In this document: positions 16,431-64,000 of the stretch, one piece after another
Layout: the number at the start of each line of letters is the position of its first letter
Position numbering within the stretch: position 1 is the first letter of the stretch
Source: Gemmatimonadales bacterium
GTDB taxonomy: Bacteria; Gemmatimonadota; Gemmatimonadetes; Gemmatimonadales; JACORV01
NCBI GenBank assembly: GCA_049513575.1
Contig: JBEKVZ010000007.1
Span: 10,612 to 74,611 of the forward strand
Direction of reading: 5' to 3'
Length of the DNA: 64,000 bases
Made by a program: the position numbers and the translations under genes
The notes under the pieces: generated by a model
The model's input: only the letters and a program-made list of their open reading frames with translations
What the model was told of the DNA's origin: nothing
Database searches by the model: none

Positions 16431-16512
16431 GGAGGCACGGAGGCACAGAGGTCCTGAGGCACGGGAACGGCGCTGCACCGGCCGTGCCTCCGTGCCGCCG
16501 TGCCCCCGTGCG
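16431..16512. repeat. octamer-periodic imperfect palindrome, GAGGCACG family (copy A1)
   Basis: Left arm is about 4x GAGGCACG at period 8; right arm is about 4x CGTGCCNC. Inner 9-bp stem GAGGCACGG/CCGTGCCTC. Fills the nadD-secA gap. Confidence 0.85.
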
Positions 16513-16523
16513 TTGGGCTGCTG

Positions 16524-19840
<3,317 letters not shown>

Positions 19841-19841
<1 letters not shown>

Positions 19842-19866
19842 TTGCCAGACGGCGAGTTGCCGAGAG
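19841..19866. repeat. GTTGCCAG-family half element (copy D1)
   Basis: GTTGCCAGACGGCGAGTTGCC directly after the secA stop. It matches the left arm of the palindrome at 51060. Confidence 0.6.
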
Positions 19867-20209
19867 CGCCGCAGCGGACATCCGCATCTGTTCGCCGCCC
19901 GCCCATCCGCTCAGGCCTGACGTGCCGGCCGGGCAATGCGCCACTGCTGCCACGCGATCGATGCGGTGCCCGATGACCGCCGATCCGATCGCGACGGCGC
20001 CGGCGGAGCCGGAAGCGAAGTTCTGTTCGGCGTGACGCGGGCCCTTGCATCGACGAGTTGGAGTCCGAATCCGGCGCGGCGCGGCGGCCCTGCCGCCTTG
20101 CCCGCGGCCGAACCGTGAGGCGCTGGCGTCCGGTGTCTCGGGCGCCCGCGCTTGCCCGTCCTCCGGCCTGCTGGGCCCCTTGTCAACAGCCAGATTGTGA
20201 CTGCGCCGG

Positions 20210-20390
20210 GGGAATTGTTCGGTGCCGAATCAACTCGCACCGGGCTGGAGGAGTGCTCCCGGCGTGCGCATGCGGACCGGAGGGGCTCCGGTCCCCTTCT
20301 CCGATCTCGACCGGATCGAGTGGCCTTCCGGCTCCGAGCCCTGCGACTTGGACCGCTGGCTGCATTTGATTCGCCGCCGAACTAATTCCC
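20210..20390. other. candidate structured RNA or MITE-like element bounded by about 24-nt inverted repeats
   Basis: GGGAATTGTTCGGTGCCGAATCAA (20210-20233) is complementary to TTGATTCGCCGCCGAACTAATTCCC (20366-20390). An internal perfect 9-bp hairpin lies at 20274-20294. Confidence 0.35.
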
Positions 20391-20679
20391 TCAGCACCGC
20401 CGTTTCCGATGGGCCACTGCGTTGGCGGACTCGGCACCCCAGCGCGATCGGCGACCGAGAGGTGTCCGACGAGCCCGGCGACTCGATCGTCCCTCTGCGC
20501 CGCTCCTGGAGAGCAGGGCAGTCCCAAGGTCCGACCAGACGTTCCACCCGGTGGGGACGCCCCCGGAGGCCGCCCCCCCGGCGTGAGGCGGCGGAGCGCG
20601 GGGCCACCGGTCGCGCGAATAGGCGCCGCGGCGCGGCGTTTGGGCCCGCGCAACCGCCGCGCCCGGCGCATGATGGGGC

Positions 20680-23540: not shown

Positions 23541-25627
23541 CGGAGTTCCGTCTCGAGGCACCCTTCGAGCCCGCCGGCGACCAGCCCCAGGCCATCGACG
23601 CGCTGGTCCGCGGCTTCACCGCCGGCGAGCGGCATCAGGTGCTGCTCGGCGTCACCGGCTCCGGCAAGACGATGACCATGGCCACCGCCGTCCGGCGACT
23701 GGGCCGGCCGGCGCTGGTTCTCTCGCACAACAAGACGCTCGCGGCGCAGCTCTACGGCGAGCTGAAGTCCTTCTTCCCGTCGAACGCGGTCGAGTTCTTC
23801 ATCTCGTACTACGACTACTACCAGCCCGAGGCGTACGTCCCGCAGACCGACACCTACATCGAAAAGGACGCCTCGATCAACCAGGACATCGAGCGGCTGC
23901 GCCTCCGGGCGACGTCGAGCCTGGTGGAGCGGGACGACGTGATCGTCGTGGCGACGGTCTCCGCGATCTACGGCCTCGGCGACCCGGTGGAGTACCGGGA
24001 GCAGATGCTGCGGCTGGGGCGCGGCGAGACCGTCGGGCGGCGCCCGATCCTCGAGCGGCTGGTCGGGATCCAGTACCAGCGCAACGACGTCGCGTTCGAG
24101 CCCGGCAACTTCCGGGTGCGGGGCGACGTGATCGAGGTCTTCCCCGCCTACGAGGAGCAGGCGGTGCGCATCGAGCTGTTCGGGGACGCCATCGAGCGCA
24201 TCGTCAAGATCGATCCGCTGACCGGGCGGAAGGTCGCCGAGCTGGAGCGGTGCGCGATCTATCCGGCCACCCACTTCGTCACGAACCGCCCCAACCTCGA
24301 GCGCGCCATCGGCCTGATCCGCGAGGAGCTGGCGGCGCGCCTCGCCGCGCTCAAGGAGGCGGGGAAGCTCCTCGAGGCCCAGCGCCTCGAGTCGCGCACC
24401 CGCTTCGACATCGAGATGATGCTCGAGGTCGGCACCTGCCACGGGATCGAGAACTACAGCCGCCACCTCTCGGGCCGCGCGCAGGGCGAGCGCCCGGCGG
24501 TCCTGATGGACTTCTTCCCCAAGGACTTCCTCGTGATCGTGGACGAGTCGCACGTCACCGTGCCGCAGATCGGCGCGATGTACGCCGGCGACCGCTCGCG
24601 CAAGGAGACGCTCGTCGAGTACGGCTTCCGCCTCCCCTCGGCGCTCGACAACCGCCCCCTGCGCTACGACGAGTTCCTCCAGCTCGCACCCCGCGCGCTC
24701 TTCGTCTCCGCCACCCCCGGCCCCGAGGAGCTGCGCCTCTCCGGCGGCGCCGTGGTCGAGCAGCTCGTCCGGCCAACGGGCTTGGTCGATCCGGAGGTCG
24801 AGGTCCGCAAGGTCGAAGGCCAGGTGGACGACCTGCTCAAGGAGATCCGCGCGCGGGAACGCCGCGGCGAGCGCGTGCTCGTGACCACGCTGACCAAGCG
24901 GATGGCGGAGGACCTCACCGACTACCTGGCTCAGGTGGGCGTGCGCGTCCGGTACATGCACTCCGACATCGACGCCATCGAGCGGATGGACATCATCCGC
25001 GGCCTCAGGCTGGGCGAGTTCGACGTGCTGGTCGGGATCAACCTGCTCCGCGAGGGGCTCGACCTCCCGGAGGTCTCGCTGGTCGCGATCCTCGACGCCG
25101 ACCAGGAGGGCTTCCTGCGCTCGCGTACGTCGCTCATCCAGACGGTGGGCCGCGCGGCGCGCCACCTCGACGGCAAGGCGATCCTCTACGCCGATCGGAT
25201 GACCGACTCGATGAAGGCGGCGCTGGCGGAGATGGACCGCCGCCGCTGCACCCAGGAGCGCTACAACGCCGAGCACGGGATCACGCCGCGCTCCATCGTC
25301 AAGTCGGTGGACCAGATCCGTTTCACCACCCGCGTCGCCGACGCGCGCGAGGACCCGGTCCCCCGCGCCGAGGCGGTGTCCCTGATGGGGAAGGCCGCGG
25401 GCGACTGGAGCGGCCTCGACCAGGCGCAGCGCGAGACGCTGGTCAGGCAACTCGAGGACGAGATGCGCCGGGCGGCCGACGACCTGGATTTCGAGCTGGC
25501 CGCGCAGCTGCGCGATCAGATTCTCGATCTCAGGGCGAGCACGCAGAATCGGGGACGCGCGGACGCACCGACGCATGGACGCACGGAAGAAGCTCGGGGT
25601 AGGCGTGGGCGGCCGGCGCGTCGATGA
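23537..25627 (+). CDS. uvrB: excinuclease ABC subunit B
   Basis: GTG 23537 overlaps the relA stop. [10 protein letters not shown] Walker [11 protein letters not shown] beta-hairpin region, C-terminal UVR motif. Confidence 0.95.
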
Positions 25628-26033: not shown

Positions 26034-26665
26034 CCGGTCTCTTCCTCGCGCTGGATACCGCGACGGACGTGCCGTCGCTGGCCGTGGGCACGCCCCGGGA
26101 CCCGGGGCCCGGGATCCGGATCCCGGGACGCCGTGAGCTGTCCCGGGATCTCGAGCGCTGGACGGCGCAGCTTCTCTCGGCTCGCGGCGTGGAGGTGGGC
26201 GATCTCGCGGGCGTCGTCGTCGCCGACGGTCCCGGGAGCTTCACCGGCTTGAGGATCGGCATCGCCTTCGCCAAGGGGCTGTGTCGCGCCCGGCGCCTGC
26301 CACTCCTCGCCGCTCCCTCGCTCCTCGGCGCCGCCTGGACCGCCGCGCGGGGCTCGGGCGTTGCGCTGGCCGAGTACGACGCTCTGCGCGGTGACGTGTA
26401 CCGCGCCGCGTATCGGCTGGCCCCGGGAGGCGTCGAGGTCCTGCTCGCTCCCGCCCTGGCGGCGGCCGGCTCGAGCGCCGATCTGCCGGAGGGCTACGCG
26501 CGCGCGACGGCCGACCAGGCGTCGGCGGCCTCGCTCCTCCGCCTCGTCGGGCTGAGCGGCGGCGCGCACGCCGTCACCGATCCGGCGCGGTGGGAGCCAG
26601 CCTACGGGCGCCCGGCGGAGGCCGAGGCGCGCTACCGCGCGCACCAGGCGGCACATGGCGCCTAG
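26030..26665 (+). CDS. tsaB: tRNA t6A37 biosynthesis protein TsaB (YeaZ)
   Basis: GTG 26030 (GTGA overlap). LALDTAT and GPGSFTGLRIG motifs. Confidence 0.8.
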   Translation: MTGLFLALDTATDVPSLAVGTPRDPGPGIRIPGRRELSRDLERWTAQLLSARGVEVGDLAGVVVADGPGSFTGLRIGIAFAKGLCRARRLPLLAAPSLLGAAWTAARGSGVALAEYDALRGDVYRAAYRLAPGGVEVLLAPALAAAGSSADLPEGYARATADQASAASLLRLVGLSGGAHAVTDPARWEPAYGRPAEAEARYRAHQAAHGA

Positions 26666-27116: not shown

Positions 27117-27134
27117 GAACCTACGTCCTTTCGG

Positions 27135-27163
27135 TTGACAAAAACCGTTGTGGCGCCTATAGT
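27135..27163 (+). promoter_or_regulatory. sigma70-type promoter candidate for ssb
   Basis: TTGACA (27135-27140), 17-nt spacer, TATAGT (27158-27163). GAGGAGGG Shine-Dalgarno at 27196, upstream of GTG 27211. Confidence 0.6.
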
Positions 27164-27210
27164 TCCGCCCTGTCCGTGGTCCCCGAGCAGCCCCCGAGGA
27201 GGGCAGTCAG

Positions 27211-27744: not shown

Positions 27745-28966
27745 GGGAGCGCATCTGGCAGCCGTCGCTCTCGCCCTCGGCTTGCCTGCGGTCCCGTTGG
27801 CGTCCCAGCAGCCGCAGCCGCAAAGCGCGCCGGCTGCACAGCAACCGGCCGCCGCGCCCCAGACGCTCGGCGCGCCTCCCGCGACGCACACGGTCCAGCA
27901 GGGCGAGACGCTGTGGGGCCTGGCGAAGCAGTTCCTGGGCGATCCGCTGCTCTGGCCCGAGATTTACCGGCTGAACACGAACGTCATCGAGGATCCACAC
28001 TACATCTTCCCGGGCGAGGAGCTGCGCTTTGTGCCGCCCCTGCCCGAGACCGCCGCTGGGCCGGCGCCGGCGCCGGCCCAGGCGGCTCAGCCGGCGGCGC
28101 CTCCCGCTCCGGGCGAGATCACGGTGGCGCCGACGCCCACCGACACGACGGCGCCCCGGCCGCAGCCGGCGCCATCGGGGAACCCCTTCGAAGCGCCGAC
28201 GATCTTCACCGCCAAGAACGCGGTCGCGGTGTCGGCCAGCACCCTGCGTCTCCAGAGCGAGCAGGCCTATCGACCCGTGCGCGTGGGCGAGCACTTCTCC
28301 GCGGGGTTCCTGACCGAGGGCGAGCGGCTGAATCCGGGGCGGCTCCTGGGGAACACGCGGACCGCCTCGATCAGCCGCCTGACCGTCACCACCAGCGCGA
28401 CGCTGTTCAGCGAAGTCGCGGTCGCGCCGCCGCCGGGCGATACGCTCAAGCCGGCCGATCTGCTTCTCGCGTACCAGGTGCCGCGCCGCATCGATCCCTA
28501 CGGCGAGGTGATCCTGCCGACTGGCCTGCTCAAGATCACGGCCGTCGGATCGCCGACCGACAACGCGACGGCTCAGGTCATCGCGGTGTATCAGGCCATC
28601 GCCAGCGGTCAGTACGTGATTCGGGTGCCGGGCTTCGCGCCGGGCAATGAGCGTCCCGTCCCGGTGGACAGCGGCGGCGTGGTCGGCTCGGTCATCGACA
28701 TGCGGGATCCTCACGAGCTGGTGGCGTTCCAGGACGCGCTGTTCCTCGATCGCGGGCAGCAGGACAGCGTGCACCTGGGCGACATCTTCCAGATCAGCGG
28801 GACGACGACGGCGGCGAGCGGCATCGGCCACGTCGTCCAGAACCAGGTGAAAGTGCTGATTGTCTACGTGCGGCCGCACACGTCGACGGGGGTCGTCATC
28901 CAGATCGACCGTCCGGACGTCCAGCCCGGGTCGAGGGCGCGCCAGGTTCGCCGGATGCCTTCGTGA
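27725..28966 (+). CDS. secreted LysM domain protein
   Basis: ATG 27725 preceded by GAGGAGG. Signal peptide, then LysM (HTVQQGETLWGLAKQFLGDPLLWPEIYRLN), then a P/A-rich linker. Confidence 0.7.
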   Translation: MTISRSRGAHLAAVALALGLPAVPLASQQPQPQSAPAAQQPAAAPQTLGAPPATHTVQQGETLWGLAKQFLGDPLLWPEIYRLNTNVIEDPHYIFPGEELRFVPPLPETAAGPAPAPAQAAQPAAPPAPGEITVAPTPTDTTAPRPQPAPSGNPFEAPTIFTAKNAVAVSASTLRLQSEQAYRPVRVGEHFSAGFLTEGERLNPGRLLGNTRTASISRLTVTTSATLFSEVAVAPPPGDTLKPADLLLAYQVPRRIDPYGEVILPTGLLKITAVGSPTDNATAQVIAVYQAIASGQYVIRVPGFAPGNERPVPVDSGGVVGSVIDMRDPHELVAFQDALFLDRGQQDSVHLGDIFQISGTTTAASGIGHVVQNQVKVLIVYVRPHTSTGVVIQIDRPDVQPGSRARQVRRMPS

Positions 28967-28970
28967 TTGC

Positions 28971-29040
28971 AGTCGAGAGTTGAGCGCCGAGAGTTGAGAG
29001 TGCTCGACTCTCAACCCTCACAGCGCAAACCTCTCAGCGC
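28971..29040. repeat. imperfect palindrome, GAGAGTTGAG variant (terminator-like hairpin)
   Basis: GAGAGTTGAG occurs twice (28975, 28989). A 12-bp stem 28989-29000/29008-19 has one mismatch and a 7-nt loop. It starts 5 nt after the LysM gene stop. Confidence 0.7.
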
Positions 29041-29055
29041 AGGGTCCTTCATTCC

Positions 29056-30006
29056 ATGAAACGTCGCGTGCTCGTCACCGGCGGTGCGGGATTCATCGGA
29101 TCCCACGTCGCCGACGCCTTCCTCGCTGCGGGTAACGACCTCACCGTCATCGACAATCTGTCGCGCGGCCGCCCGCAGCAGGTGCCGCGGGCCGCGGAGT
29201 TCCGGCAGCTGGACGTCGGCTCCGAGGAGGCGCGCGCCCTGGTGGCGGGAGGCGGATTCGAGGTGATCGTCCACCTGGCGGCGCAGGTGGACGTCCGCGT
29301 GTCCGTGTCCGACCCGGTGTTCGATGCGGAGGAGAACCTGCTCGCCCTGCTGTCGCTCCTGGAGGGTGCGCGCGCGGGGGGGACGCGCCGGATCGTCTTC
29401 TCCTCGTCGGGCGGCGTGGTCTACGGCGAGCGGCGGCCGCCGCACGTCGAGACCGCGCCGAAGTTTCCGATCTCGCCCTATGGCGTGAGCAAGCTCGCGG
29501 CCGAGTACTACCTCGGCTGCTACGCGCAACTCTACGGTCTGGAGACGGTCGCGCTCCGGTACAGCAACGTCTTCGGGCCGCGGCAGGACCCGCACGGCGA
29601 GGCGGGCGTCGTCGCGATCTTCGGCAACCGCCTGCGCCAGAAGAAGGCGCTGACGATTTACGGCGACGGGAACCAGACCCGCGACTACGTGTACGTCGCC
29701 GACGTGGCCCGCGCGAACGTGCTTGCCGCCGACGCCGTGCTCCCGCCCCTCGACGGCACCATCGACGCGCGGGCGTTCAACATCGGTATCGGCGTCGAAA
29801 CCTCGGTGAACGCGCTCGCCCAGGCGATGATCGAGGCCTCCGGCGTCGAGGTCCCGGTCGAGCACGCCCCCGCCCGAGGCGGCGAGCTGCTCGCCAACGC
29901 CCTGACGGCGGACAAGGCCGCCCGGGTGCTCGGCTGGAAGCCCGGGGTGTCCCTCGCCGAGGGGCTGAAGGCGACCTACGACTGGATCGTGCGGGAGGCG
30001 TCGTGA
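29056..30006 (+). CDS. NAD-dependent epimerase (UDP-glucose 4-epimerase family)
   Basis: GGAGFIGSH, SPYGVSKLAAEYY, RYSNVFGPRQDP. Confidence 0.75.
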   Translation: MKRRVLVTGGAGFIGSHVADAFLAAGNDLTVIDNLSRGRPQQVPRAAEFRQLDVGSEEARALVAGGGFEVIVHLAAQVDVRVSVSDPVFDAEENLLALLSLLEGARAGGTRRIVFSSSGGVVYGERRPPHVETAPKFPISPYGVSKLAAEYYLGCYAQLYGLETVALRYSNVFGPRQDPHGEAGVVAIFGNRLRQKKALTIYGDGNQTRDYVYVADVARANVLAADAVLPPLDGTIDARAFNIGIGVETSVNALAQAMIEASGVEVPVEHAPARGGELLANALTADKAARVLGWKPGVSLAEGLKATYDWIVREAS

Positions 30007-30010
30007 GACC

Positions 30011-30106
30011 GGAGGCACGGAGGCACGGGCGCACGGGGGCACAGGCACGGCGACTCGCCGCCTGGTTGTCTGTGCCGCTGTGCCTCTGTGCCGCCGTGCC
30101 CGCTGC
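30011..30106. repeat. octamer-periodic imperfect palindrome, GAGGCACG family (copy A2)
   Basis: GGAGGCAC GGAGGCAC GGGCGCAC GGGGGCAC on the left; TGTGCCGC TGTGCCTC TGTGCCGC CGTGCC on the right. Fills the gap before tolQ. Confidence 0.85.
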
Positions 30107-30110
30107 GGCC

Positions 30111-30815: not shown

Positions 30816-31226
30816 GTGGCCCGCCGCCGTTTCCGCGCCGGCTTCAACGCGGACATCAACGTCACGTCGCTGGTGGACGTCGCGTTCGTCCTGCTGATCA
30901 TCTTCATGATCACGGCCCCCATGATGCAGGGTGGGGTCCAGGTGCGGCTGCCGCGAGCCGAGGCGCGCCCGCTCGAGGAGCAGACGGGGATCACCGTCTC
31001 CATGGACCGCCGCGGCCGCATCTTCGTGGACCAGGCGGCCTTCTCGTATGAGGACTTCCGCGCGACTTTCCGCGCCCTGGTCGCGCGCCGGAAGCCCGCC
31101 GCCATCTACCTCCGCGCCGATCGCGGCGTGCCGTACGGGGACGTGGTGCGCGTCCTGGCCATCATCCGCACGGCGGGCATCCGCGACGTCGGCCTGGTGG
31201 CCGAGCCGGAGTCCGTGGGGCCGTGA
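30816..31226 (+). CDS. tolR: Tol-Pal system protein TolR (ExbD/TolR family)
   Basis: INVTSLVDVAFVLLIIFMITAP, the typical ExbD/TolR TM segment with conserved Asp. Confidence 0.85.
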   Translation: MARRRFRAGFNADINVTSLVDVAFVLLIIFMITAPMMQGGVQVRLPRAEARPLEEQTGITVSMDRRGRIFVDQAAFSYEDFRATFRALVARRKPAAIYLRADRGVPYGDVVRVLAIIRTAGIRDVGLVAEPESVGP

Positions 31227-45940: not shown

Positions 45941-45941
45941 C

Positions 45942-51042: not shown

Positions 51043-51043
51043 G

Positions 51044-51206
51044 GTACCAGTGATCGGAGCAGTTGCCAGACGGCAAGTACTGAAGTGGTCACCAGACGCG
51101 AGCTCACAGGAGCCAGACCAGTTGCCAGTACTGACAACTGGCCTGCGTTCCGCGGGCTGGCAACTGGTAACCACTTCCTCCTTCGCCGTCTGGCAACTGT
51201 CCTGAC
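51044..51206. repeat. long imperfect palindrome, GTTGCCAG family (copy D2)
   Basis: Outer stem CAGTTGCCAGACGGCA (51060)/CGCCGTCTGGCAACTG (51185). Central 24-nt palindrome CCAGTTGCCAGTACTGACAACTGG (51118-51141). Confidence 0.85.
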
Positions 51207-51212
51207 TTCCTT

Positions 51213-52301: not shown

Positions 52302-52768
52302 CCGACCTTGCTCTGCTCAAGGAGTTGCTGGCGCTCCTGGACGCGTCGAGCGCCACCACGATCGAGATCCGCCGGGGCTTCACCACCTACCGGGTGAGCC
52401 GCGAGGTGGGTGGCGCCGTGGTGATGCCGGCGGGCGCCGTGCATCACGCCGCCGCCCCGGGGCTCGCGCAAGCGGCGTCCCCCGCCGGCGCTTCGCCGGC
52501 GGAGGCCGCGGCTCCGGCGACCCGCCTGGTCGAGGTCAAGTCGCCGATGGTCGGCACCTTCTATCGGGCGCCGGAGCCGGGTGCGGACCCGTACGTGAAG
52601 CCGGGTACTCGCGTCAGCACGGGCCAGACGCTCTGCATCATCGAAGCGATGAAGATCATGAACGAGCTCGAGTCGGAGGTCGCCGGCGTGGTGCGCGAGA
52701 TCCTCGTGGAGGACGCGCAGCCCGTCGAATTCGGCCAGGTTCTCTTCCGGGTGGATCCCAATGGCTGA
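52298..52768 (+). CDS. accB: acetyl-CoA carboxylase biotin carboxyl carrier protein
   Basis: Biotinylation motif EAMKIMNELE. ATGA overlap with the upstream gene. Confidence 0.9.
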   Translation: MTDLALLKELLALLDASSATTIEIRRGFTTYRVSREVGGAVVMPAGAVHHAAAPGLAQAASPAGASPAEAAAPATRLVEVKSPMVGTFYRAPEPGADPYVKPGTRVSTGQTLCIIEAMKIMNELESEVAGVVREILVEDAQPVEFGQVLFRVDPNG

Positions 52769-54112
52769 ACCGGGTGCATCGCAGGTGCTGGGCGCGCCGA
52801 ACGCCGGACCGACGATGGCCAAGCCGTCGGCCGCGCCGGCCTTCTTCCCGGCCTCGATCCGGTGGATGGTGGAGCAGAAGGCCTCCGACCTCCTGCTGAA
52901 GGTCGGGCGGCCGCCAACGGTCCGGATCGCGGGTGACCTCGCAGCCACGCCCAACCAGCCACCGATGACGCCGCAGGACCTCAAGGCGCTGGCCGAGCAC
53001 CTGATGCAGTCGAAGCAGCTGAAGGAGTTCATGGAGACGAAGGAGGCCGACTTCGCGATCGGCGTGCCGGGGGTCGGACGGTTCCGCGTCAACGTGTACT
53101 GGCAGCGCGGTACCCTCGCCTTCGCCTTCCGGGTCATCCCCTACGAGGTGAAGACGATCGAGGAGCTGCGCCTCCCGAAGATCCTCGAGACGCTGGCCCT
53201 GAAGCCGCGCGGCCTGGTGCTCGTCACGGGCGTGACCGGCAGCGGCAAGTCCACCGCGCTGGCCGCGATGGTCAACCACATCAACCTCACTCGCCGCGTC
53301 AACATCATCACCATCGAAGATCCGATCGAGTTCCTGCACCGCGATGTCAACTCGATGATCAGCCAGCGGGAGATCGGCGCGGACACGCTGTCCTTCCACA
53401 ACGCGCTGCGCCACGTGCTGCGGCAGAACCCCGACGTCATCCTGGTCGGCGAGATCCGCGACATGGAGACGCTGGATACCGCGATCAAGGCGGCCGACAC
53501 GGGGCACCTGGTCTTCTCGACCCTGCACACCACCGACGCCACCCAGACCATCAACCGCGTGATCTCGTTCTACCCTCCGCACCAGCACGAAGAAGTGCGC
53601 CACCTGCTGTCGACCGCTCTCCAGGCCGTCGTCTCCCTCCGCCTGGTGCCGACCAAGGATGGGACGGGACGGGTGGCGGCGAGCGAGATCCTGGTCAACA
53701 CGGCGGCGGTGCGGGAGAACATCCGCGACGTGAAGAGCCAGCTCAACATCCCGGACCTGATCAAGGAGGGCACGGTCCAGTACGGGATGCAGTCGTTCGA
53801 CCAGAGCCTGATGCAGTGGTACTCCGACGGCGTCATCAGCCTCGAGTCGGCGCTCTACTACTGCACCAATCCGACCGAATTCCAGCTCCAGGTGCAGGGC
53901 ATCGCGGGCTCCAGCGACCGCACCTTCGAGGGCTTCGAGAAGAAGGGGGCCTCCGATCCGGGCAAGACCGGCGGCGCGGCGGGCCTTGGCGCGCGGCGGC
54001 CGGCGGCGCCGGCCCCGGCGCCGCCCGCGAAGCCGGCGACGGGGGCCACCGGGCCGGCGGACGCGGGCAACGGTGGCGTGTCCGGGCTGAGCAGGGACCC
54101 GTTCCAGCGCTG

Positions 54113-54113
<1 letters not shown>
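52761..54113 (+). CDS. PilT-family type IV pilus retraction-type ATPase with C-terminal low-complexity tail
   Basis: Walker [10 protein letters not shown], Walker [11 protein letters not shown], His box [11 protein letters not shown]. The start is 52761 or 52815. About 70 aa Gly/Pro/Ala tail. Confidence 0.85.
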
Positions 54114-56223: not shown

Positions 56224-58420
56224 TCTCTGGGCCATAGGGGCCCTGCTCGCGGGTCTGTTCCTGGCGCTCGCGGCGGCCCCCGGCGTTTCGCTCACCGGCC
56301 CGGTCGGCGTCGCCCTCGGGGCCGGACTGCGCTCCTTCTTCGGCGCCGGCGCCGCCGCCGTCCCGCTCATCCCGCTCTTCTGGGCCGTCGCGCTCTTCGG
56401 CCACCTCGACCGCAGCCTCGGCCGCCGCGTCACGATCCTCCTCGCCGGCCTCTCTCTCACCGTGCCGCTCGCTCTCGGCGTCGGCTACCAGACCTGGGAG
56501 AGCGTCGCGCACGCCGCGCTCGTGTCCGGCGCGCTGCCGGAATACCCGCGCTGGGTGGGCCTCGCCGGCGGGTTCCTTGCGTACGAGCTGAGGATCATCG
56601 GGCCCGTGGGCGAGGGCCTCCTCGCGCTGGGCATCTTCTCGGGGCTCACCATCGCCACGGTGGGATGGAATCCGCTGGGGATGCTGCGAAAACGGGAAGC
56701 GGCGTCGGGTGTCGGGGGTCAGGTGTCGGGGGCTGTCGAGGCGCCGCCTCCCGAGCTCCCGGAAGACGTCTTCGCGAGCGCTGAGGAGGAGGCTGAAGAG
56801 GAGTCCGTGCCCGCCAAGCGGGGCCGGAAGGGCGGGGCCCCGGCACCCGGCACCCGGCACCCGACACCTGCTTTGGCCGACGAGCTTCCCCCGATCGACC
56901 TGCTGAATCCCCCGTTGCCCCAGCCGGCCAACTTCGAGGCCGAGCTCGATCGCCTCCAGAGCGTACTGATCGACACGCTGAGGCAGTTCAAGGTCGAGGG
57001 GGCGATCGGCGGGCGGACCACGGGACCGGTGGTCACGCAGTTCGAGGTCGTCCCGGCCGCTGGCGTGAAGGTGGGGCGCATCGCGGCGCTCGCGGACGAT
57101 CTGGCGCTCACGATGCGCGCGCAGAGCATCCGCATCGTCGCGCCGATCCCGGGGAAAGGCGCGGTCGGCGTCGAGGTGCCGAATCCGACGCCGCGCCTGG
57201 TCGGCTTTCGCGAGCTGCTCGAGGCGCCCGAATGGCAGAAGGCGGTCCAGCGCCTGCTCCTGCCCGTCGCGCTGGGCCGGGACCTCGAAGGCCGGCCGAT
57301 CATCGCCGACCTGACGAAGATGCCGCACCTCCTGATCGCCGGCGCCACCGGCTCGGGGAAATCGGTCTGCATCAACACGCTCATCACGAGCCTCGTGTAC
57401 CGCTACACGCCGGCCGAGATGCGCTTCCTGATGATCGATCCCAAGATGGTCGAGCTGTCGATGTACAACGCGCTGCCGCACCTCAGGCACCGCGTCGTCA
57501 CCGACAACAAGGACGCCGCGCACGTGCTCAAGTGGGCCGTGTGGGAGATGCAGGATCGCTACGAGCTGCTCCACGCCAACAACGCCCGCAACCTGGTGGA
57601 CTTCAACCACAAGCTCGCCGAGGACCCGTCGACGATCGTGAAGCCGAACGGCGAGGCGTACGAGGAGGGAGCGCTCCCCTACATCCTCCTCTTCGTGGAC
57701 GAGCTGGCCGACCTCATCATGACCGTGCAGGCCGAGGTCGAGACGCCGCTGGCGCTGCTCGCGCAGAAGGCGCGGGCGATCGGCATCCACCTGATCCTCG
57801 CGACCCAGCGGCCGTCGGTGAACGTCATCACCGGCCTCATCAAGGCGAACTTCCCCTGCCGGATCGCCTTCCGCGTCGCGTCCAAGATCGACAGCCGTAC
57901 CATCCTCGATCAGAACGGCGCCGAAGCGCTGCTGGGCAACGGGGACATGCTCTTCATGCCGCCGGGGAAGAGCGACCTGATGCGGCTGCAGGGCGCGTTC
58001 GTCGGCACCGACGAGACCGAGAAGCTGATGCACTGGTTCGACGCGCGGGCCGAAGCGCGGCGTGAGGCGGCCGCTGAGGCCGCAGAGGCGGGCGCGGAGG
58101 GCGCTGAAGGAGAAGCCGGCGAGGCCGACATCCTCGAGGTCGTGCGCGCGCGGATCGCCGAGGAGGAAGGCGGCGACGAGGGCGGCGCCGACGCCGGCGG
58201 CGGGCTGGCGGAGCGCGATCCGCTCTTCCGCCAGGCCGCGGAAGTCTGCATCCAGAACCAGCTCGGCTCGACGTCGCTCCTCCAGCGGCGCCTCAAGATC
58301 GGCTACGGCCGCGCGGCCAGGATCATCGACCAGCTGCACGATGCCGGCATCCTCGGGCCGCCGGACGGGTCCAAGGCTCGGGAGGTGCTCGTGGGGTTGC
58401 AGGATCTCGATCAGTACTGA
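56177..58420 (+). CDS. ftsK: DNA translocase FtsK
   Basis: N-terminal TM segments, Walker A GATGSGKSVCINT, Walker B FVDELADL, C-terminal gamma winged helix GSTSLLQRRLKIGYGRAARIIDQL. Confidence 0.9.
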   Translation: MPTAGSRRIDPRTKDDLWAIGALLAGLFLALAAAPGVSLTGPVGVALGAGLRSFFGAGAAAVPLIPLFWAVALFGHLDRSLGRRVTILLAGLSLTVPLALGVGYQTWESVAHAALVSGALPEYPRWVGLAGGFLAYELRIIGPVGEGLLALGIFSGLTIATVGWNPLGMLRKREAASGVGGQVSGAVEAPPPELPEDVFASAEEEAEEESVPAKRGRKGGAPAPGTRHPTPALADELPPIDLLNPPLPQPANFEAELDRLQSVLIDTLRQFKVEGAIGGRTTGPVVTQFEVVPAAGVKVGRIAALADDLALTMRAQSIRIVAPIPGKGAVGVEVPNPTPRLVGFRELLEAPEWQKAVQRLLLPVALGRDLEGRPIIADLTKMPHLLIAGATGSGKSVCINTLITSLVYRYTPAEMRFLMIDPKMVELSMYNALPHLRHRVVTDNKDAAHVLKWAVWEMQDRYELLHANNARNLVDFNHKLAEDPSTIVKPNGEAYEEGALPYILLFVDELADLIMTVQAEVETPLALLAQKARAIGIHLILATQRPSVNVITGLIKANFPCRIAFRVASKIDSRTILDQNGAEALLGNGDMLFMPPGKSDLMRLQGAFVGTDETEKLMHWFDARAEARREAAAEAAEAGAEGAEGEAGEADILEVVRARIAEEEGGDEGGADAGGGLAERDPLFRQAAEVCIQNQLGSTSLLQRRLKIGYGRAARIIDQLHDAGILGPPDGSKAREVLVGLQDLDQY

Positions 58421-59448
58421 TGGCCGAGCCCAGCCAGGCCGAATTTGAAGAAGTTCCAGCGTGCCCGCTTTGCTCCGCCCGGGGACGGCTTCGGTACACC
58501 TCCATGCACGATCGGATCTTCAACGCACCCGGAACGGCGGAGATGCTGGAGTGCCCGGGATGCGAACTGTTGTGGCTGAGCCCTCGATTGACTCGTTCCA
58601 GCATCGCACGTGCCTACGGCGAGTACTACACCCACCAGGACGCGAGCGCCCGGTTCTTCGGCCGCGCGAGAGCGGCGACACGGTCGCTCGTGCTCGAGGA
58701 TGCGTTCGCAGATCGGAGTCTGGACCGGCCGCTCGTTCGGGCTCTGCTCGGTGGGGCCCTATCGAGCGTGCCATTCATCGCGGAGCGAGTGGATCCCCTC
58801 GTCAGAGAGTTCCGTCACAAGGGAGCGCGCAAGCTCCTGGACGTGGGATCCGGCGACGGCGTGTTCCTGGCCACGATGCACGGAGCCGGATGGGAGGTCT
58901 GCGGCCTGGAGCCCGACCCCGTCGCCGCTCGCCTGGCCCGAGAGAAGCGAGGAGTCCCCGTCCTCGACGGTACCCTCGACCAGGTGGACGCAGGCGCGCA
59001 GGCGTTCGACGTGGTCGTCTCGCGCCACGTGGTCGAGCACGTTCACGACCCTGTCGCCTTCATGAAGGCCTGCTTCCGGGCCGTCAGGCCTGATGGCTGC
59101 CTGATCATCCTCACGCCGAACTCACGCTCATTGTGTCACAGGATCTTCAGGCAGCACTGGCTGCACCTCGACCCGCCTCGCCACCTGCACGTCTTCTCCC
59201 GCCGATCGCTCGAGAAATGCGCGACTGCGGCCGGTCTGCGGTCGGTCCGCATCCGATCTCTCGCGCGCTGGGCTCGGACGACCTGGCAGTTGAGCCGCCT
59301 GATAGATCGCCATGGACATCTGCCGCCCGGCAGGACGCCGCTGCGGCTCTTGCTGGAGGGAGCGTGCTTTGCGGTGGTCGAGACTGTCGCCTCAAGGGGA
59401 CGTTCCGACGCCGGAGAGGAGCTGATGTTGATCGCTGAGAAGCGGTGA
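58420..59448 (+). CDS. class I SAM-dependent methyltransferase with N-terminal Cys4 ribbon
   Basis: CPLC...CPGC, then the SAM motif LLDVGSGDGVFL. ATGA overlap with ftsK. Many A/T-ending codons, unlike the neighbouring genes. Confidence 0.75.
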   Translation: MAEPSQAEFEEVPACPLCSARGRLRYTSMHDRIFNAPGTAEMLECPGCELLWLSPRLTRSSIARAYGEYYTHQDASARFFGRARAATRSLVLEDAFADRSLDRPLVRALLGGALSSVPFIAERVDPLVREFRHKGARKLLDVGSGDGVFLATMHGAGWEVCGLEPDPVAARLAREKRGVPVLDGTLDQVDAGAQAFDVVVSRHVVEHVHDPVAFMKACFRAVRPDGCLIILTPNSRSLCHRIFRQHWLHLDPPRHLHVFSRRSLEKCATAAGLRSVRIRSLARWARTTWQLSRLIDRHGHLPPGRTPLRLLLEGACFAVVETVASRGRSDAGEELMLIAEKR

Positions 59449-59964: not shown

Positions 59965-59997
59965 GGGGGGTTAGGGGTTAGGGGTTAGGGGTTAGGG
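59965..59997 (+). repeat. (GGGGTTA)n heptamer tandem repeat, G-quadruplex-type motif
   Basis: GGGGGG TTA GGGG TTA GGGG TTA GGGG TTA GGG on the + strand, 115 nt upstream of the recA ATG. Confidence 0.9.
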
Positions 59998-60026
59998 CCG
60001 CGCGAGGCAGGTTCTGAATCTCGCGA

Positions 60027-60068
60027 CTGGCAACTGGTAACCACTGGCAACTTGCCGTCTGGCAACTG
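60027..60068. repeat. GTTGCCAG-family right-arm element (copy D3)
   Basis: Three direct CTGGCAAC cores (60027, 60044, 60059). A 19-nt identity CTGGCAACTGGTAACCACT is shared with 51157-51175. Confidence 0.8.
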
Positions 60069-60111
60069 AACCGTATCCGTCGGCTCTGAACTTTGTTTCC
60101 GCGAGGCGAGG

Positions 60112-61796: not shown

Positions 61797-61811
61797 CTTT
61801 GTGCGGCTCCG

Positions 61812-64000
61812 ATGGATGCCGCACGGATTCGCCGCCGTTTCCTCGACTTCTTCGTCGAGCGAGGCCACCGCGAGGTAGCCTCGTCGTCGCTCGTCCCGCG
61901 GGACGACCCGACCCTCCTGTTCACCAACGCCGGGATGGTGCAGTTCAAGCGCGTCTTCCTGGGGATCGAGCGCCGGGACTACAAGCGCGCGACCACCTCC
62001 CAGAAGTGCGTGCGGGCCGGCGGCAAGCACAACGACCTCGAGCAGGTGGGGCACACCGACCGGCACCACACCTTCTTCGAGATGCTCGGCAACTTTTCCT
62101 TCGGCGACTACTTCAAGAAGGAGGCGATCGGCTTCGCCTGGGAGTTCGTGACCTCGCAGCAGTGGCTGGGCATCCATCCCGACCGCATCAGGATCAGCGT
62201 GCACGCGAAGGACGACGATGCGCGGCGGCTCTGGCACGACGTGGCCGGCGTCAGCGACGACCGCATTTACGGCCTGGGCGATGCGGACAACTTCTGGCAG
62301 ATGGCCGACACCGGCCCCTGCGGGTTCTGCAGCGAAGTGTACGTCGACCTGGCGGGCACGGGGGCACGGGGGCACGGAGGCACGGAGCTCGCCGAGCCGG
62401 TGAGCGACCACATCCACTCCCTCGACACGTTCGTGGAGTTGGCGGAGGCGGGGCGGTTCCTGGAGATCTGGAACCTCGTCTTCATGCAGTTCGACCGGCA
62501 GGCCTCCGGCGAGCTCGTGCCGCTTCCCGCGCCGTCGGTGGACACGGGTGCCGGGCTCGAGCGCATCGCCGCAGTGCTGCAGGGCGTCGGCTCCAACTTC
62601 CACACCGACCTCTTCGCGCCGCTCATCGCCCGTGCCGAGCTGGTGGTCGGCAAGGCGTACGACAAGGGGCCGGCCGGCGCGCCGTTCCGCGTCCTGGCCG
62701 ACCACGCCCGGGCGGTGGCGTTCCTGCTCGCCGACGGCGTCTATCCGTCGAACGAGGGGCGCGGCTACGTGCTGCGCCGGATCCTGCGGCGCGCGGTCCG
62801 CCACGCCTATCTCCTCGGGCGTCGCGAGCCGACGCTGGTGCGCCTGGTCGAGGAGGTCGCGCGAGTGATGGGGGGCGTCTACCCCGAGCTGCAGCAGCAC
62901 GCCGCGCAGCTCTCCGAGGTCACGACCGCCGAGGAGGAGCGCTTCCTCGAGACGATCGAGGGCGGGCTCGAGCGGCTCGCGGACTTGAAGGCGGTCTCGG
63001 CGGAGGAGGCGTTCAAGCTCTACGACACTTACGGTTTCCCGATCGACCTCACGCAGATCGTCGCGGCCGAGCGGGGCATCGCGGTGGACGTCCCGGGCTT
63101 CGAGAAGCTGCTCGACGGGCAGCGGGAGCGGTCACGAAATGCGGCCGGCACCGGGGCACAGAGGCATGGAGGCACGGGTGCCGGCGGTGAGGTTTCCCGT
63201 GCCTCCGTGCGCCCGCGCCTCAGTGCCTCCGACTGGGTGTCGGTCAAGAAGCGGGCCCGTCAACGCTGGGTCGGCTACGAGACCACGCGCGCCGAGACCG
63301 ATATCCTGGCGTTCGAGCAGGAGAAGGGCCGCGTCGGCCTGATCCTCCACGAGAACCCGTTCTACGCGGAGAGCGGCGGCCAGGTCAGCGACACGGGCGA
63401 GGTGAAGGGGCGGGGCTGGAGGCTTCCGGTGGAGGAGGTCCGCAAGGTCGAGGGCAAGACTGCCGTCTTCGGCCCGTTCCACGGCCCGTTCGAGCCGACG
63501 CCCGTCGAGGCCGTCGTCGACGGGCGGCTGCGGCGCGACACCGAGCGCAATCACACCGCGACGCACCTGCTCCACGCGGCGCTCCGCAAGATCCTCGGCA
63601 CGCACGTGCGGCAGGCCGGGAGCGTCGTCTCGCCCCAACATCTCCGTTTCGACTTCACGCACCATCAGCCGATCCCGCCGCTGGCCCTGGCCGAGGTCGA
63701 GGCGGAGATCAACCAGCACGTCTGGGAGAACCTCGACGTCGTGCAGAAGGAGATGGCGTACGCCGACGCGCTGACGGTGGGCGCGATGGCGCTGTTCGGC
63801 GAGAAGTACGGCGACGTCGTGCGGACGATCACCGTGCCCGGCGTCTCGATGGAGCTGTGCGGCGGTTGCCACGTGCGGACCACGGGCCAGATCGGCCTTC
63901 TGCGTCTGGTGGGCGAGACGGGCGTCGGCGCCGGCGTGCGCCGCGTCGAGGCGCTCACCGGGCCCGGGGCGTTCGACTGGCTGCTGGAGCGCGTGCGGCT
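61812..64000 (+). CDS. alaS: alanine--tRNA ligase, 3' end outside window
   Basis: Not in the ORF track because the frame stays open to the window end. Hand translation from ATG 61812 found no stop. Matches MDAARIRRRFLDFFVERGH, KCVRAGGKHNDLE, FFEMLGNFSFGDYFK and HTATHLLH. Confidence 0.95.
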   Translation, partial: MDAARIRRRFLDFFVERGHREVASSSLVPRDDPTLLFTNAGMVQFKRVFLGIERRDYKRATTSQKCVRAGGKHNDLEQVGHTDRHHTFFEMLGNFSFGDYFKKEAIGFAWEFVTSQQWLGIHPDRIRISVHAKDDDARRLWHDVAGVSDDRIYGLGDADNFWQMADTGPCGFCSEVYVDLAGTGARGHGGTELAEPVSDHIHSLDTFVELAEAGRFLEIWNLVFMQFDRQASGELVPLPAPSVDTGAGLERIAAVLQGVGSNFHTDLFAPLIARAELVVGKAYDKGPAGAPFRVLADHARAVAFLLADGVYPSNEGRGYVLRRILRRAVRHAYLLGRREPTLVRLVEEVARVMGGVYPELQQHAAQLSEVTTAEEERFLETIEGGLERLADLKAVSAEEAFKLYDTYGFPIDLTQIVAAERGIAVDVPGFEKLLDGQRERSRNAAGTGAQRHGGTGAGGEVSRASVRPRLSASDWVSVKKRARQRWVGYETTRAETDILAFEQEKGRVGLILHENPFYAESGGQVSDTGEVKGRGWRLPVEEVRKVEGKTAVFGPFHGPFEPTPVEAVVDGRLRRDTERNHTATHLLHAALRKILGTHVRQAGSVVSPQHLRFDFTHHQPIPPLALAEVEAEINQHVWENLDVVQKEMAYADALTVGAMALFGEKYGDVVRTITVPGVSMELCGGCHVRTTGQIGLLRLVGETGVGAGVRRVEALTGPGAFDWLLERVR
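62354..62386. repeat. GAGGCACG-family half element inside alaS (copy A3)
   Basis: CACGGGGG CACGGGGG CACGGAGG CACGGAG, four units at period 8, translated as AGTGARGHGGTE. Confidence 0.8.
63147..63231. repeat. GAGGCACG-family complete palindrome inside alaS (copy A4)
   Basis: Perfect 11-bp stem GGAGGCACGGG (63168-78)/CCCGTGCCTCC (63196-206) flanked by further octamer units. Read in frame as GTGAQRHGGTGAGGEVSRASVRPRLSAS. Confidence 0.85.

Follow-up and report, generated by a model that had tools for sequence, protein, structure and literature searches.

On balance, we favour reading the palindromic repeats in this stretch of DNA (64,000 nt of the genome of a Gemmatimonadales soil bacterium, hereafter the window) as complete and partial copies of several families of a lineage-specific, non-autonomous Gemmatimonadales repeat, with arms that would be shaped by slippage and template switching. 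Each element is a G-first palindrome of about 60–170 nt, and its arms are arrays of a 7–8-nt word. Comparison of related loci shows, at the level of sequence, that the elements create intergenic gaps rather than occupy pre-existing ones, and that gene junctions which are not orthologous carry elements of the same families, as do, in frame, permissive loops of essential genes. By the same comparison, word variants are common across loci within a lineage and different between lineages, and the two arms of an element change word together. The original prediction was of palindromes of a reiterated short word in nearly every sizeable gap, with a fixed orientation relative to transcription. The palindromes stand; the near-complete occupancy, the strand orientation and some of the locus placements do not.

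Ten loci and a G-tract at 59965 had been located, all of them correctly. Seven of the ten (16431, 28971, 30011, 39468, 46483, 51044 and 63147) are complete word-periodic palindromes. The three others, 19841, 60027 and 62354, are half-copies, a class that had also been proposed, and each has a folding z-score of about 0. Six of the seven compact complete loci are intergenic and 63147 lies within alaS. Their minimum free energy (MFE) z-scores against 60 dinucleotide shuffles range from -2.25 to -11.2, while sixty coding controls have a mean of -0.57 and a minimum of -2.74. The value for 16431 is inside the range of the coding controls, so the support for this locus comes from its complementary period-8 arrays instead. 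A split pair in ftsK (56690–56880) folds with a z-score of -4.4 against shuffles. The tight periodicity proposed for 51044 does not hold, as its 8-mers are spaced 15–17 nt apart. The arrays at 56704 and 56839 (ftsK), 14223 and 25553 had been overlooked. The features are as follows, with complete palindromes given without strand.

14223–14250, + strand: half array (ACACCCT)x4, fills the 29 nt from the stop of a TPR gene to the alternative start of the next gene (14252)
16431–16511: A-family complete palindrome, (GGAGGCAC)x4 ... (CCGTGCCN)x4, fills the nadD|secA junction, starts 2 nt past the nadD stop; z -2.25
19839–19866, + strand: D-family solo 5' end, TAGTTGCCAGACGGCGAGTTGCCGAGAG, overlaps the secA stop TAG
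25553–25587, + strand: half array (GGACGCAC)x4.4, uvrB 3' end / tsaE start
28972–29040: C-family complete palindrome of GAGAGTTGAG words, fills the LysM|epimerase gap; z -3.2
30011–30103: A-family complete palindrome in the 104-nt epimerase|tolQ gap; z -4.6
39469–39624: B-family complete palindrome, GTGAGAG / CTCTCAC, first word gives the TGA stop of the upstream gene; z -5.2
46481–46634: B-family complete palindrome in the convergent tatA/surA gap, tatA stop inside the first word; z -6.6
51060–51199: D-family complete element, CAGTTGCCAG...CTGGCAACTG, aroQ|pepP gap; z -11.2
56704–56730, + strand: G-rich heptamer array (GTCGGGT)x3.9, ftsK linker, 5' partner of 56839
56839–56868, + strand: C-rich heptamer array (CCCGGCA)x4.3, ftsK linker, 3' partner of 56704
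59967–59997, + strand: perfect heptamer array (GGGGTTA)4.4, a G-quadruplex (G4) motif, upstream of recA, adjoins the D 3' half
60010–60068, + strand: D-family 3' half, non-periodic GGTTCTGAATCTCGCGA and then three CTGGCAAC words
62354–62385, + strand: A-family half array (GGGCACGG)x4, in frame, variable loop of alaS, aa 181–192 AGTGARGHGGTE
63147–63230: A-family complete palindrome, in frame, interdomain linker of alaS, aa ~446–473; z -4.1

By TRF the arms have periods of 7 or 8 and 2.3–5.4 copies. At least six unrelated words coexist in the window, and GGGGTTA is the only one capable of forming a G4. The elements at 30011 and 16431 are identical in their first 16 nt. The copies at 16431, 30011 and 63147, which use the same word, have words and ends in common and unrelated central loops; this counts against the favoured reading and differs from typical REPINs or MITEs. 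Rotating the 14223 word gives TACACCC, used in the related locus L102 (related loci carry L numbers), and rotating the 25553 word gives that of the alaS site 1 array in species X (GCA_050015315.1). Inspection ruled out reading TGGCAAC...TTGCC as a sigma-54 promoter, the spacing being wrong. An Rfam 15 scan of the whole window gives zero matches at the gathering scores.

The elements are detected by the shuffle MFE z-scores and by a TRF-pair search for nearby tandem arrays with reverse-complementary units. The latter finds five loci in the 64-kb window, against four in unrelated loci totalling 1.3 Mb. The density of period-7/8 arrays is 29.7 per 100 kb in the window and 3.2 in high-GC controls (about ninefold), and periods 6, 9 and 12 show no enrichment over these controls. 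Most elements are missed by a strict periodicity filter and by Smith-Waterman inverted-repeat scoring, because the stems carry regularly spaced mismatches. Base-pair counts in unbranched hairpins do not discriminate in DNA of 70% GC, and in exact 6-mer recurrence GC-rich words hide the signal (42 clusters, compared with 12–20 in shuffles, at a score of at least 2).

Complete palindromes are found in six of the 13 gaps of at least 40 nt and partial copies in two. The five others (27117, 38413, 48470, 58421 and 59449) have no element and include true operon ends, so "nearly every sizeable gap" was too strong. The 838-nt secA-radC gap holds neither an ORF nor an RNA match. The elements do abut stop codons as proposed, at offsets of -7 to +17 nt, with some overlapping the stop. 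The loci at 62354 and 63147 had been placed among the intergenic ones; both are in frame within alaS and, together with the ftsK arrays, they are instances of the coding-region copies that had also been suggested. A G-rich arm lying 5' on the coding strand is not a valid orientation signal for complete palindromes, because a palindrome that starts G-rich on one strand does so on the other too and carries no strand information relative to transcription. The intrinsic polarity is consistent, with 12 of 12 paired loci in the sampled Gemmatimonadales G-first. A comparison of + and - strand MFE values reveals no consistent strand preference, and so gives no hint that G-U pairs are selected on either strand.

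That the elements create gaps follows from the same junctions being empty in close relatives, where stop and start codons are adjacent. At nadD|secA, L184 has an empty junction (TAAATG), L183 a 61-nt D-family half and the window a 94-nt A palindrome. At the 3' end of secA, where the window has the solo D 5' end, L184 carries a full D element. The epimerase|tolQ junction reads tgaATG with zero gap in L101 and L102, against the 104-nt gap with its element in the window. The aroQ|pepP junction is empty in L109 and L105 and full in the window, L104, L106 and L103; L111 has an internally deleted copy and L099 a solo end only. No target-site duplication is seen at nadD|secA, epimerase|tolQ or aroQ|pepP when empty and filled sites are compared. 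The re-use of a junction by different families is compatible with targeting or with mere tolerance.

Other junctions show re-wording of the arms. At hyp284|hutU the word is GTGAGA in the window and GTGATG in L102, the arms changing together; the L102 orthologue of the 39469 element has GTGATG/CATCAC on both arms. At tatA|surA, L101 has a small B hairpin and L102 uses GGGTGTA/TACACCC words. The GGGGTTA array upstream of recA is also present in L097 and L098 with other copy numbers, and in L099 the array and the D 3' half are missing as a whole block. Turnover of the elements is fast enough that they differ between genomes which are otherwise ~92–100% identical in a neighbouring gene. The near-identical strain contigs L001–L016 (0–5 SNPs per 14–23 kb, ~0.02%) have identical elements and are hence uninformative.

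Two sites in alaS are indel hotspots among 120 homologues. Relative to PDB entry 3HXU, site 1 is in a loop and site 2 is in an interdomain linker. Site 1 has no repeat in L099 and (GCACGGAC)x4 in L097. In L100, alaS contains two homologous palindromes of ~95 nt at two sites of the one gene, and between genomes identical peptide motifs are found at different positions in AlaS. The arms in ftsK differ by lineage and are complementary within each; they flank a conserved orthologous coding core of ~110 nt, so this pair cannot be one inserted unit. The reading frames of alaS and ftsK are kept across the in-frame copies.

The D family gives the clearest sharing between loci. Its 3' end can be aligned across five non-orthologous junctions, ~55 nt of non-periodic D sequence is common to non-orthologous loci, and the D 3' half at 60010–60068 closely matches the 3' half of the aroQ|pepP element of L106, again a non-orthologous locus. 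The words also vary by lineage. The window has eight copies of GTTGCCAG and one of GTTGCGAG, and species X has 0 and 8; as background, 957 kb of high-GC controls contain 3 and 12. The G variant alone is found in L184, a locus without an assignment to species X, and in L107 and L112, and the C variant alone in L098, L104, L106 and L099; at aroQ|pepP, L101 and L103 have the GTTGCGAG subfamily. All eight GTTGCCAG copies in the window are inside elements, with no single copy in coding DNA. In all, ~0.5 Mb of Gemmatimonadales sequence was sampled. A metagenome scan centred on PepP gave mostly short contigs, and the cross-locus word test was therefore assembled from contigs shown to be conspecific.

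A gene for mobilisation was seen neither in the window nor in the relatives' loci, so the mechanism that follows is inferred. Copies would spread by copying and pasting, with no target-site duplication left behind; the agent could be a REP/RAYT-like trans-acting enzyme, or else repair from a template or gene conversion among the copies. Once in place, the arms may lengthen, shorten and become uniform through replication slippage and template switching in the hairpin (quasipalindrome correction), which would account for periodic arms, half-copies and concerted changes. Copies would survive only at permissive sites, namely exact stop/start junctions, operon ends and flexible protein linkers, and hence abut or overlap stop codons. 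Within operon mRNAs the elements would form very stable stem-loops without a U-tract, and long-lived copies at operon ends (hyp284|hutU and tatA|surA) may since have taken on a role as 3' hairpins.

One generative mechanism for several word families, as originally proposed, is no more than plausible, with traces of both dispersal and slippage or template switching. Slippage on hairpins, one of the two candidates put forward, is favoured by the half arrays, the copy-number differences and the arms that switch word together. The other candidate, REP/RAYT-like mobilisation, agrees with the REP- or MITE-like dispersal (empty and filled sites, shared complex sequence and subfamilies), but no RAYT is seen. 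As the original prediction noted, the window has no transposase candidate. The precomputed Pfam listings for the window and ~0.2 Mb of relatives' loci contain neither a RAYT nor any other transposase, Y1 HUH (PF01797) included, so that the REP/RAYT label is not established. None of the seven complete copies has GTAG or CTAC, the REP-type 5' motif, 12 nt or less from an end, and a literature search on repeats or RAYTs of Gemmatimonadota found nothing relevant.

The elements could instead be hairpins under selection as RNA or DNA (terminators that need no U-tract, attenuators or stabilisers of mRNA 3' ends) that evolve in place, with sharing between loci secondary. Their starts 0–17 nt after stop codons, or overlapping them, agree with this, as does the persistence of the hyp284|hutU and tatA|surA hairpins in three lineages with both arms re-worded, which looks like compensatory evolution. 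The palindrome in the convergent gap has the classic layout of a bidirectional terminator, and the Xanthomonas arrays, equally close to stop codons, are transcribed (PMC4692102). We nevertheless judge this explanation rather unlikely. That U-tracts are lacking was borne out: the 3' flanks were read directly, and none of 10 terminator-like sites in 28000–47900 coincides with an element. The lack of U-tracts and the position inside operons argue against canonical terminators, in line with the original view that these are not ordinary ones. Two elements are inserted where relatives have adjacent stop and start codons, in the translationally coupled essential pairs nadD|secA and epimerase|tolQ; these insertions are recent, and termination there would be harmful. 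Complete copies also sit inside the coding sequence of alaS and ftsK, half-copies are unable to fold, presence varies among close relatives, and the five element-free gaps include true operon ends.

In a purely local origin, slippage would expand heptamers or octamers, fold-back or strand-switch errors would make the inverted arm, and nothing would move between loci. The specific enrichment of period-7/8 arrays, the half arrays at 14223, 25553, 59967 and 62354, the copy number that varies between relatives, the ftsK arms around a conserved core and the unrelated central loops of same-word copies all fit, and heptamer over-representation has been ascribed to polymerase slippage (PMC4692102). 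Complete elements of 61–104 nt at junctions that are spacerless in relatives do not. Nor do the non-periodic D sequence at non-orthologous loci, the two homologous 95-nt copies in one gene of L100 and the single rare 8-mer variant common to all loci of a lineage. This origin is already strained by the D sharing, the empty and filled states of nadD|secA and the lineage word variants, and we regard it as improbable.

We give equally little credence to a dedicated trans-acting system in Gemmatimonadales (perhaps also in Phycisphaerae and Xanthomonas) that writes or copies G-rich 7–8-nt words into DNA, possibly by extending the 3' ends reiteratively on both sides of a break. Writing at both ends would yield G-first palindromes, unrelated centres, half-copies and no target-site duplication. 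If the word were set by the template or specificity of the system, a one-base word variant would be common to every locus in a lineage. Such word-writing, if true, would be a previously unrecognised form of bacterial repeat generation, neither an ordinary transposon nor simple slippage.

Much the same lineage pattern could be expected of recognition sites for a trans-acting host protein (a DNA-uptake receptor or a nucleoid or partition protein) that accumulate by drive or selection and co-evolve with it. DNA uptake sequences (DUS) reportedly occur in dialects, which the lineage-specific word variants changing genome-wide resemble. In Neisseria, DUS are often inverted pairs at gene ends, and the D family includes GCCGTCTG. 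However, D words are confined to elements with no scattered single copies in coding DNA, one genome has several unrelated words, these form tandem arrays of 3–9 copies and not single sites, and no candidate protein was identified, which makes recognition sites very improbable. Hairpins and tandem repeats are known trouble spots of short-read assembly, but artefacts of GC-rich metagenomic contigs are a negligible prospect here, with every element identical in contigs from different samples that ENA and JGI pipelines assembled independently, the alaS and ftsK frames preserved by the in-frame copies and related elements present in many other MAGs.

The elements create most of the larger intergenic spaces in tightly packed operons, and so shape the genome architecture of a widespread, poorly studied soil phylum. 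They also extend or substitute peptide segments of the essential proteins AlaS and FtsK and in places provide the stop codon. The empty, filled and decayed states make this a natural system for the origin of word-repeat palindromes, and the lineage-specific word subfamilies point to information exchange between copies. In practical terms the elements can be expected to mislead gene callers and fragment assemblies, and could serve as strain markers. This kind of repeat is little known, its one earlier description being of a single word in Xanthomonas; we know of no explanation of paired heptamer arrays since that description.

Several known systems share part of these features. DUS/USS are single-copy words found genome-wide, coding DNA included, unlike GTTGCCAG with its copies all inside elements. 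MITEs are small and non-autonomous, with inverted ends, strain-variable presence and occasional in-frame insertion. The elements are likewise small, with inverted ends, variable presence and in-frame insertion. Unlike MITEs, they show no target-site duplication (three junctions) and have no known parent IS, and the whole element is a word-array palindrome rather than short terminal inverted repeats around a core. REP/REPIN sequences are reportedly non-autonomous extragenic palindromes mobilised by RAYT, a doublet forming a long hairpin. They leave no target-site duplication and form a genome population with a lineage-specific master sequence. Going by this description, the elements are similar in being non-autonomous palindromes with lineage-specific variants and no target-site duplication, but they lack the GTAG-type 5' motif, have word arrays as arms and include copies within coding sequence. 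REPs are moreover imperfect palindromes of 20–40 nt with a conserved doublet spacer, whereas the elements are 70–160 nt with unrelated central loops in same-word copies.

Rickettsia palindromic elements (RPE) are said to be dispersed palindromes of ~100–150 nt, in frame at permissive surface positions as well as intergenic, and we know of no transposase for them. They resemble the present elements as dispersed palindromic repeats in frame at permissive positions of conserved genes (alaS twice and the ftsK linker). Unlike the present elements, RPE are AT-rich, are not made of reiterated short words and come from reduced intracellular genomes; with phylum and base composition different, no homology to RPE families is expected. 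Cyanobacterial STRR, as cited in PMC4692102, are tandem heptamers between genes, and one genome can have several word families (Mazel et al. 1990), and the TAACTGA heptamer direct repeats of Beggiatoaceae include one inverted case among 170 sets (MacGregor 2015, PMC4679880). Both are intergenic tandem heptamers like those described here, but they are overwhelmingly direct and usually upstream of start codons.

Among described repeats, the paired GGGAATC heptamer arrays of Xanthomonas come nearest to the elements. The (GGGAATC)n arrays of Xanthomonas and the GGGGA(C/T)T arrays of Nostoc are G-rich heptamer arrays (Rehm et al. 2015, PMC4692102). In Xanthomonas, 70–75 cases per genome have the array closely followed by its reverse complement in convergent (G-first) order; 89–93% of arrays are intergenic, at a mean of 28 nt from the upstream stop with some overlapping it, and their length and sequence vary among close relatives, with no IS association and function unknown (PMC4692102). 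The Gemmatimonadales elements are similar in their tandem words (7 nt there, 7–8 nt here) of at least 2–4 units, in their reverse-complement partner in convergent G-first order (five window loci; 12/12 in Gemmatimonadales) and in being mostly intergenic within ~50 nt of the upstream stop (-7 to +17 nt here). Xanthomonas has one dominant G4-capable word per genome, whereas several unrelated 7- and 8-nt words, most of them not G4-capable, are used here. The complete in-frame copies in essential genes, the empty and filled junctions, the lineage word subfamilies and the occurrence in the phylum Gemmatimonadota go beyond the Xanthomonas description.

The window, from an uncultured Gemmatimonadales bacterium, has a GC content of 70%, and its RecA is 78–80% identical to RecA of Gemmatimonadales and Gemmatimonadaceae MAGs. 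The gene map is based on GC3 frame analysis and the recorded gene calls of JGI contig 3300038426 Ga0427943_000114, which is identical to the window across all stretches compared. Of the ~56 genes, only surA is on the − strand; exactly 13 intergenic gaps measure at least 40 nt. All loci of the original prediction, palindromes with arms of a reiterated short word, are found as described in the sequence, and the absence of U-tracts is confirmed. The claim that nearly every sizeable gap is occupied goes too far: complete palindromes are present in 6 of the 13 gaps and partial copies in 2, while 5 have none, among them the promoter gap of ssb and the divergent gap at surA. By word, the elements form families A (16431, 30011, 62354 and 63147), B (39468 and 46483), C (28971) and D (19841, 51044 and 60027); 62354 and 63147 lie within alaS, in frame. 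No Rfam family matches are found in the window. Six gaps are almost wholly filled by a word-array hairpin:

16430–16523: filled gap between nadD and secA, A family, 94 nt
28967–29055: filled gap
30007–30110: filled 104-nt gap between an epimerase gene and tolQ, holding the 30011 element
39474–39641: filled gap
46487–46636: filled gap
51043–51212: filled gap

The gap upstream of ssb (27117–27210) has a near-consensus sigma-70 promoter (TTGACA-N17-TATAGT) and no word element. Inside the tsaB coding sequence, (CCCGGGA)x5 at 26094–26129 has period 7, is partly self-complementary and may be another instance of these word repeats. A gene for a T2SSE-family (PilB/GspE-like) ATPase separates accB from accC (52761–54113), unusually for this acetyl-CoA carboxylase gene pair.

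Against dinucleotide shuffles, the MFE z-scores of the six filled gaps are −2.25 to −11.2, that of the 63147 copy is −4.1 and that of an ftsK pair (56704/56839), absent from the original prediction, is −4.4; all remaining gaps lie between −1.7 and +1.8. Sixty coding segments used as controls have a mean z of −0.57 and a minimum of −2.74. The 16431 element (z −2.25) does not exceed them by MFE alone, and its stronger evidence is its complementary period-8 arrays. An unbiased pair detector (two TRF arrays of period 5–12, at most 130 nt apart, with units that are reverse-complement rotations) finds 5 loci in the 64-kb window. Other Gemmatimonadales yield 2 in 117 kb, and unrelated loci yield 4 in 1.3 Mb, two of them from one Phycisphaera contig. 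Period-7/8 arrays number 29.7 per 100 kb in the window, 11–17 in other Gemmatimonadales and 3.2 in high-GC controls (0.94 Mb), and period-6/9/12 arrays show no enrichment (14.1 versus 15.6). Taken together, shuffles, pair detector and period-7/8 enrichment show that the architecture is real and far above chance.

Close relatives of the window, whose contigs carry L numbers here, show full synteny. Between the epimerase gene and tolQ, L101 and L102 read tgaATG where the window has the 104-nt gap. Between nadD and secA, L184 reads TAAATG, the A-family palindrome is present in the window, and a D-family 3' half (61 nt) in L183. The aroQ–pepP junction is empty in L109 and L105 and full in the window, L104, L106 and L103/L101; the L111 copy is internally deleted, and L099 retains the outermost 5' word only. 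These comparisons show that the elements make the gaps and did not settle in existing ones. Because the ancestral junctions had a spacer of only 0–30 nt, surviving insertions must abut the stop codon, which in the B family and at secA is supplied or overlapped by the first word itself. Between secA and radC, the window has ~810 nt (19867–20679) where L183 has 62 nt and L184 has 271 nt, taken up by a D element. The ~810-nt stretch shows neither a coding-signature ORF nor an Rfam match and could be a decayed insertion. A methyltransferase gene lies between ftsK and yraN (58543–59448) in the window and L097. L099 and L098 lack it, and in L098 its place is taken by a D-family element.

Similar sequence also recurs at unrelated sites. 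The D-family 3' end, ...TTCTGAATCTYGCGA-CTGGCAAC-TGGTAACCA-CTGGCAAC-TTGSCGT-CTGGCAAC-TG, is alignable at five non-orthologous junctions in different genomes (aroQ–pepP, yraN–recA, secA–radC, nadD–secA and ftsK–yraN). The window half-copy at 60010–60068 closely matches the 3' half of the L106 aroQ–pepP element, including non-periodic sequence. In the A family, 16431 and 30011 have the first 16 nt in common and similar 3' ends, with unrelated centres. The alaS gene of L100 contains two homologous ~95-nt palindromes at two sites, both in frame (ΔG ~ −120 kcal/mol). D elements also contain GCCGTCTG (51185–51199 and 60054–60068), which agrees with the Neisseria DNA uptake sequence GCCGTCTGAA at 8 of 10 positions. 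The likeness is probably accidental, since D words do not occur dispersed as isolated single copies. Upstream of recA, (GGGGTTA)4.4 on the coding strand (59967–59997) forms a canonical G-quadruplex motif 115–145 nt from the gene; L097 and L098 carry it with other copy numbers, and L099 lacks it. Nearby, GAACTTTGTTTC (~60088–60099; GAACTCTGTTTC at the same place in L099) resembles a GAAC-N4-GTTC box and may be a LexA/SOS box.

Words change in concert within a lineage. Species X comprises L097, L103 and L107 (99.8–100% identical over 540 nt of pepP) and L101, whose aroQ–pepP gap matches that of L103; its identity to the window is ~92%. Across 44 kb of sequence from species X, GTTGCCAG is found 0 times and GTTGCGAG 8 times, 7 of the 8 within two elements at different loci. 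The window has 8 copies of GTTGCCAG, all in three elements, and 1 of GTTGCGAG; high-GC controls (957 kb) have 3 and 12. Only the G variant (GTTGCGAG) is present in L184, L107 and L112, and only the C variant (GTTGCCAG) in L098, L104, L106 and L099, the last being 97% identical to species X. The X-type 3' end (TAACCG-CTCGCAAC-TCNNCGT-CTCGCAAC-TGTTC) is near-identical at aroQ–pepP of L101 and secA–radC of L184. The hyp284–hutU element occurs in all three lineages, with GTGAGA/TCTCAC in the window and L101 and GTGATG/CATCAC in L102, where both arms carry this form, ~nine words each. This lineage-wide pattern is beyond independent point mutation, so information must pass between arms and between loci, which requires re-insertion from an active subfamily, gene conversion, or both.

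Coding sequence also carries copies. Among 120 AlaS homologues (60–91% identity, 737–971 aa), the two strongest length-variable regions are the positions of the two alaS copies. At site 1, L099 and many others have an ancestral-looking loop, KDPKTGxWNGEH, in whose place the window and L098 have (GGCACGGN)x4 and species X has (GCACGGAC)x4; inserts of 30–50 aa are present at this site in several further genomes. Some genomes have at site 2 the peptide motifs (e.g. GRRGPREAGDGPS) that others have at site 1. Compared with E. coli AlaS (PDB entry 3HXU), site 1 is a loop, longer in the window protein, and site 2 begins exactly at the end of the crystallised catalytic fragment, in the interdomain linker. 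In the FtsK linker, a conserved acidic core (~110 nt) lies between an upstream G-rich and a downstream C-rich array. Their words are lineage-specific and complementary within a lineage (GGTGTCG/CGACACC in L111, GGGGTCC/GGACCCC in L099, GGGGATT/CCCCAAC in L098); the window pair is complementary only in part. L097 and L107, two contigs of one species (pepP 99.8% identical), differ in the ftsK 3' array (TACACCC versus AATCCCC) and in part of the acidic core (L097:4907–5113, L107:5410–5610), suggesting allelic replacement by recombination.

The G-rich arm was originally read as lying on the coding strand. Reverse-complementing (W)n-loop-(W')n gives (W)n-loop'-(W')n, therefore a palindrome with a G-rich 5' arm is G-first on both strands and uninformative on transcription or replication. 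The intrinsic polarity is real: the 12 paired-array loci found in Gemmatimonadales are G-first without exception. Some are orthologous, leaving at least 7 independent sites (two-sided binomial by our arithmetic, p ~0.016 for 7 sites, 0.0005 for 12). Xanthomonas paired arrays are likewise described as convergent in every case (PMC4692102). A possible reason for the polarity is that a C-first hairpin would expose C-rich, G-poor nascent RNA to Rho before the partner arm is made.

The observations cover insertion polymorphism, complex sequence spread over several loci, tolerance of in-frame copies, arms and loci that change together, and G-first polarity, with neither a U-tract nor a visible target-site duplication. 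The elements would be non-autonomous repeats that spread by copy-and-paste, through a putative enzyme or templated repair between copies. Afterwards, replication slippage would reshape their arms, together with template switching within the hairpin, which is known as quasipalindrome correction and is an established source of mutation. Such a combination would account for periodicity, half-copies, unrelated centres and arm covariation. It has three main weaknesses: no mobilising gene is seen in the window or in relatives' loci with Pfam listings, the ftsK pair cannot have been inserted as one unit, and same-word copies have unrelated centres. A purely in-situ origin fails on the clean 61–104-nt insertions at junctions and the non-periodic sequence common to different loci. 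A purely functional terminator role fails as well, given copies within operons and coding sequence and the missing U-tract; insertions between translationally coupled essential genes also argue against efficient termination. Co-option is possible for long-lived operon-end copies, those at hyp284–hutU and in the convergent tatA–surA gap. The original interpretation is supported in part, namely that these are not ordinary terminators; its strand-orientation reading was wrong, and the mechanism is one that we infer.

Among known repeats, Rickettsia palindromic elements are alike in their in-frame behaviour and REPINs in their population-like subfamilies. The GTAG motif and conserved spacer of REP are lacking here, and no RAYT gene is seen in the window or in relatives' loci with Pfam listings. 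The target-site duplication of a MITE is not visible at the three junctions compared (epimerase–tolQ, nadD–secA and aroQ–pepP). Our literature search found no description of such elements for Gemmatimonadota. More distant Gemmatimonadales have very regular palindromes with words absent from the window, (GTAGACG)x6...(CTACCGT)x8 at L025:4334–4451 (ΔG −91) and GAAGGGA/CTTCTCC at L018:103–191 (ΔG −81). A Phycisphaera MAG (L089, Planctomycetota) has the same architecture with AT-rich heptamers, GATTTTT/AAAATC and GGATTTC/GAAATCC (L089:12953–13054 and L089:19010–19127); it is therefore not confined to Gemmatimonadota or GC-rich words, and may be more widespread. Cyanobacteria and Beggiatoaceae also have heptamer direct repeats (PMC4679880). 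The closest known parallel is the G-rich heptamer arrays (GGGAATC)n of Xanthomonas (Rehm et al. 2015, PMC4692102), with ~185 arrays per genome, convergent pairs in 70–75 cases, 89–93% of arrays intergenic and a mean of 28 nt from the upstream stop codon, some overlapping it; they are transcribed, variable between species and have no known function. The architecture itself thus has a published precedent. The present elements differ from it in that a genome holds several word families of 7 and 8 nt, essential genes contain copies, junctions are documented as empty, filled or decayed, and word subfamilies change in concert across loci. Specialists would find two points notable, the change of words in concert between loci and the in-frame spread into alaS and ftsK, and this system allows ideas on how paired heptamer arrays originate to be tested.
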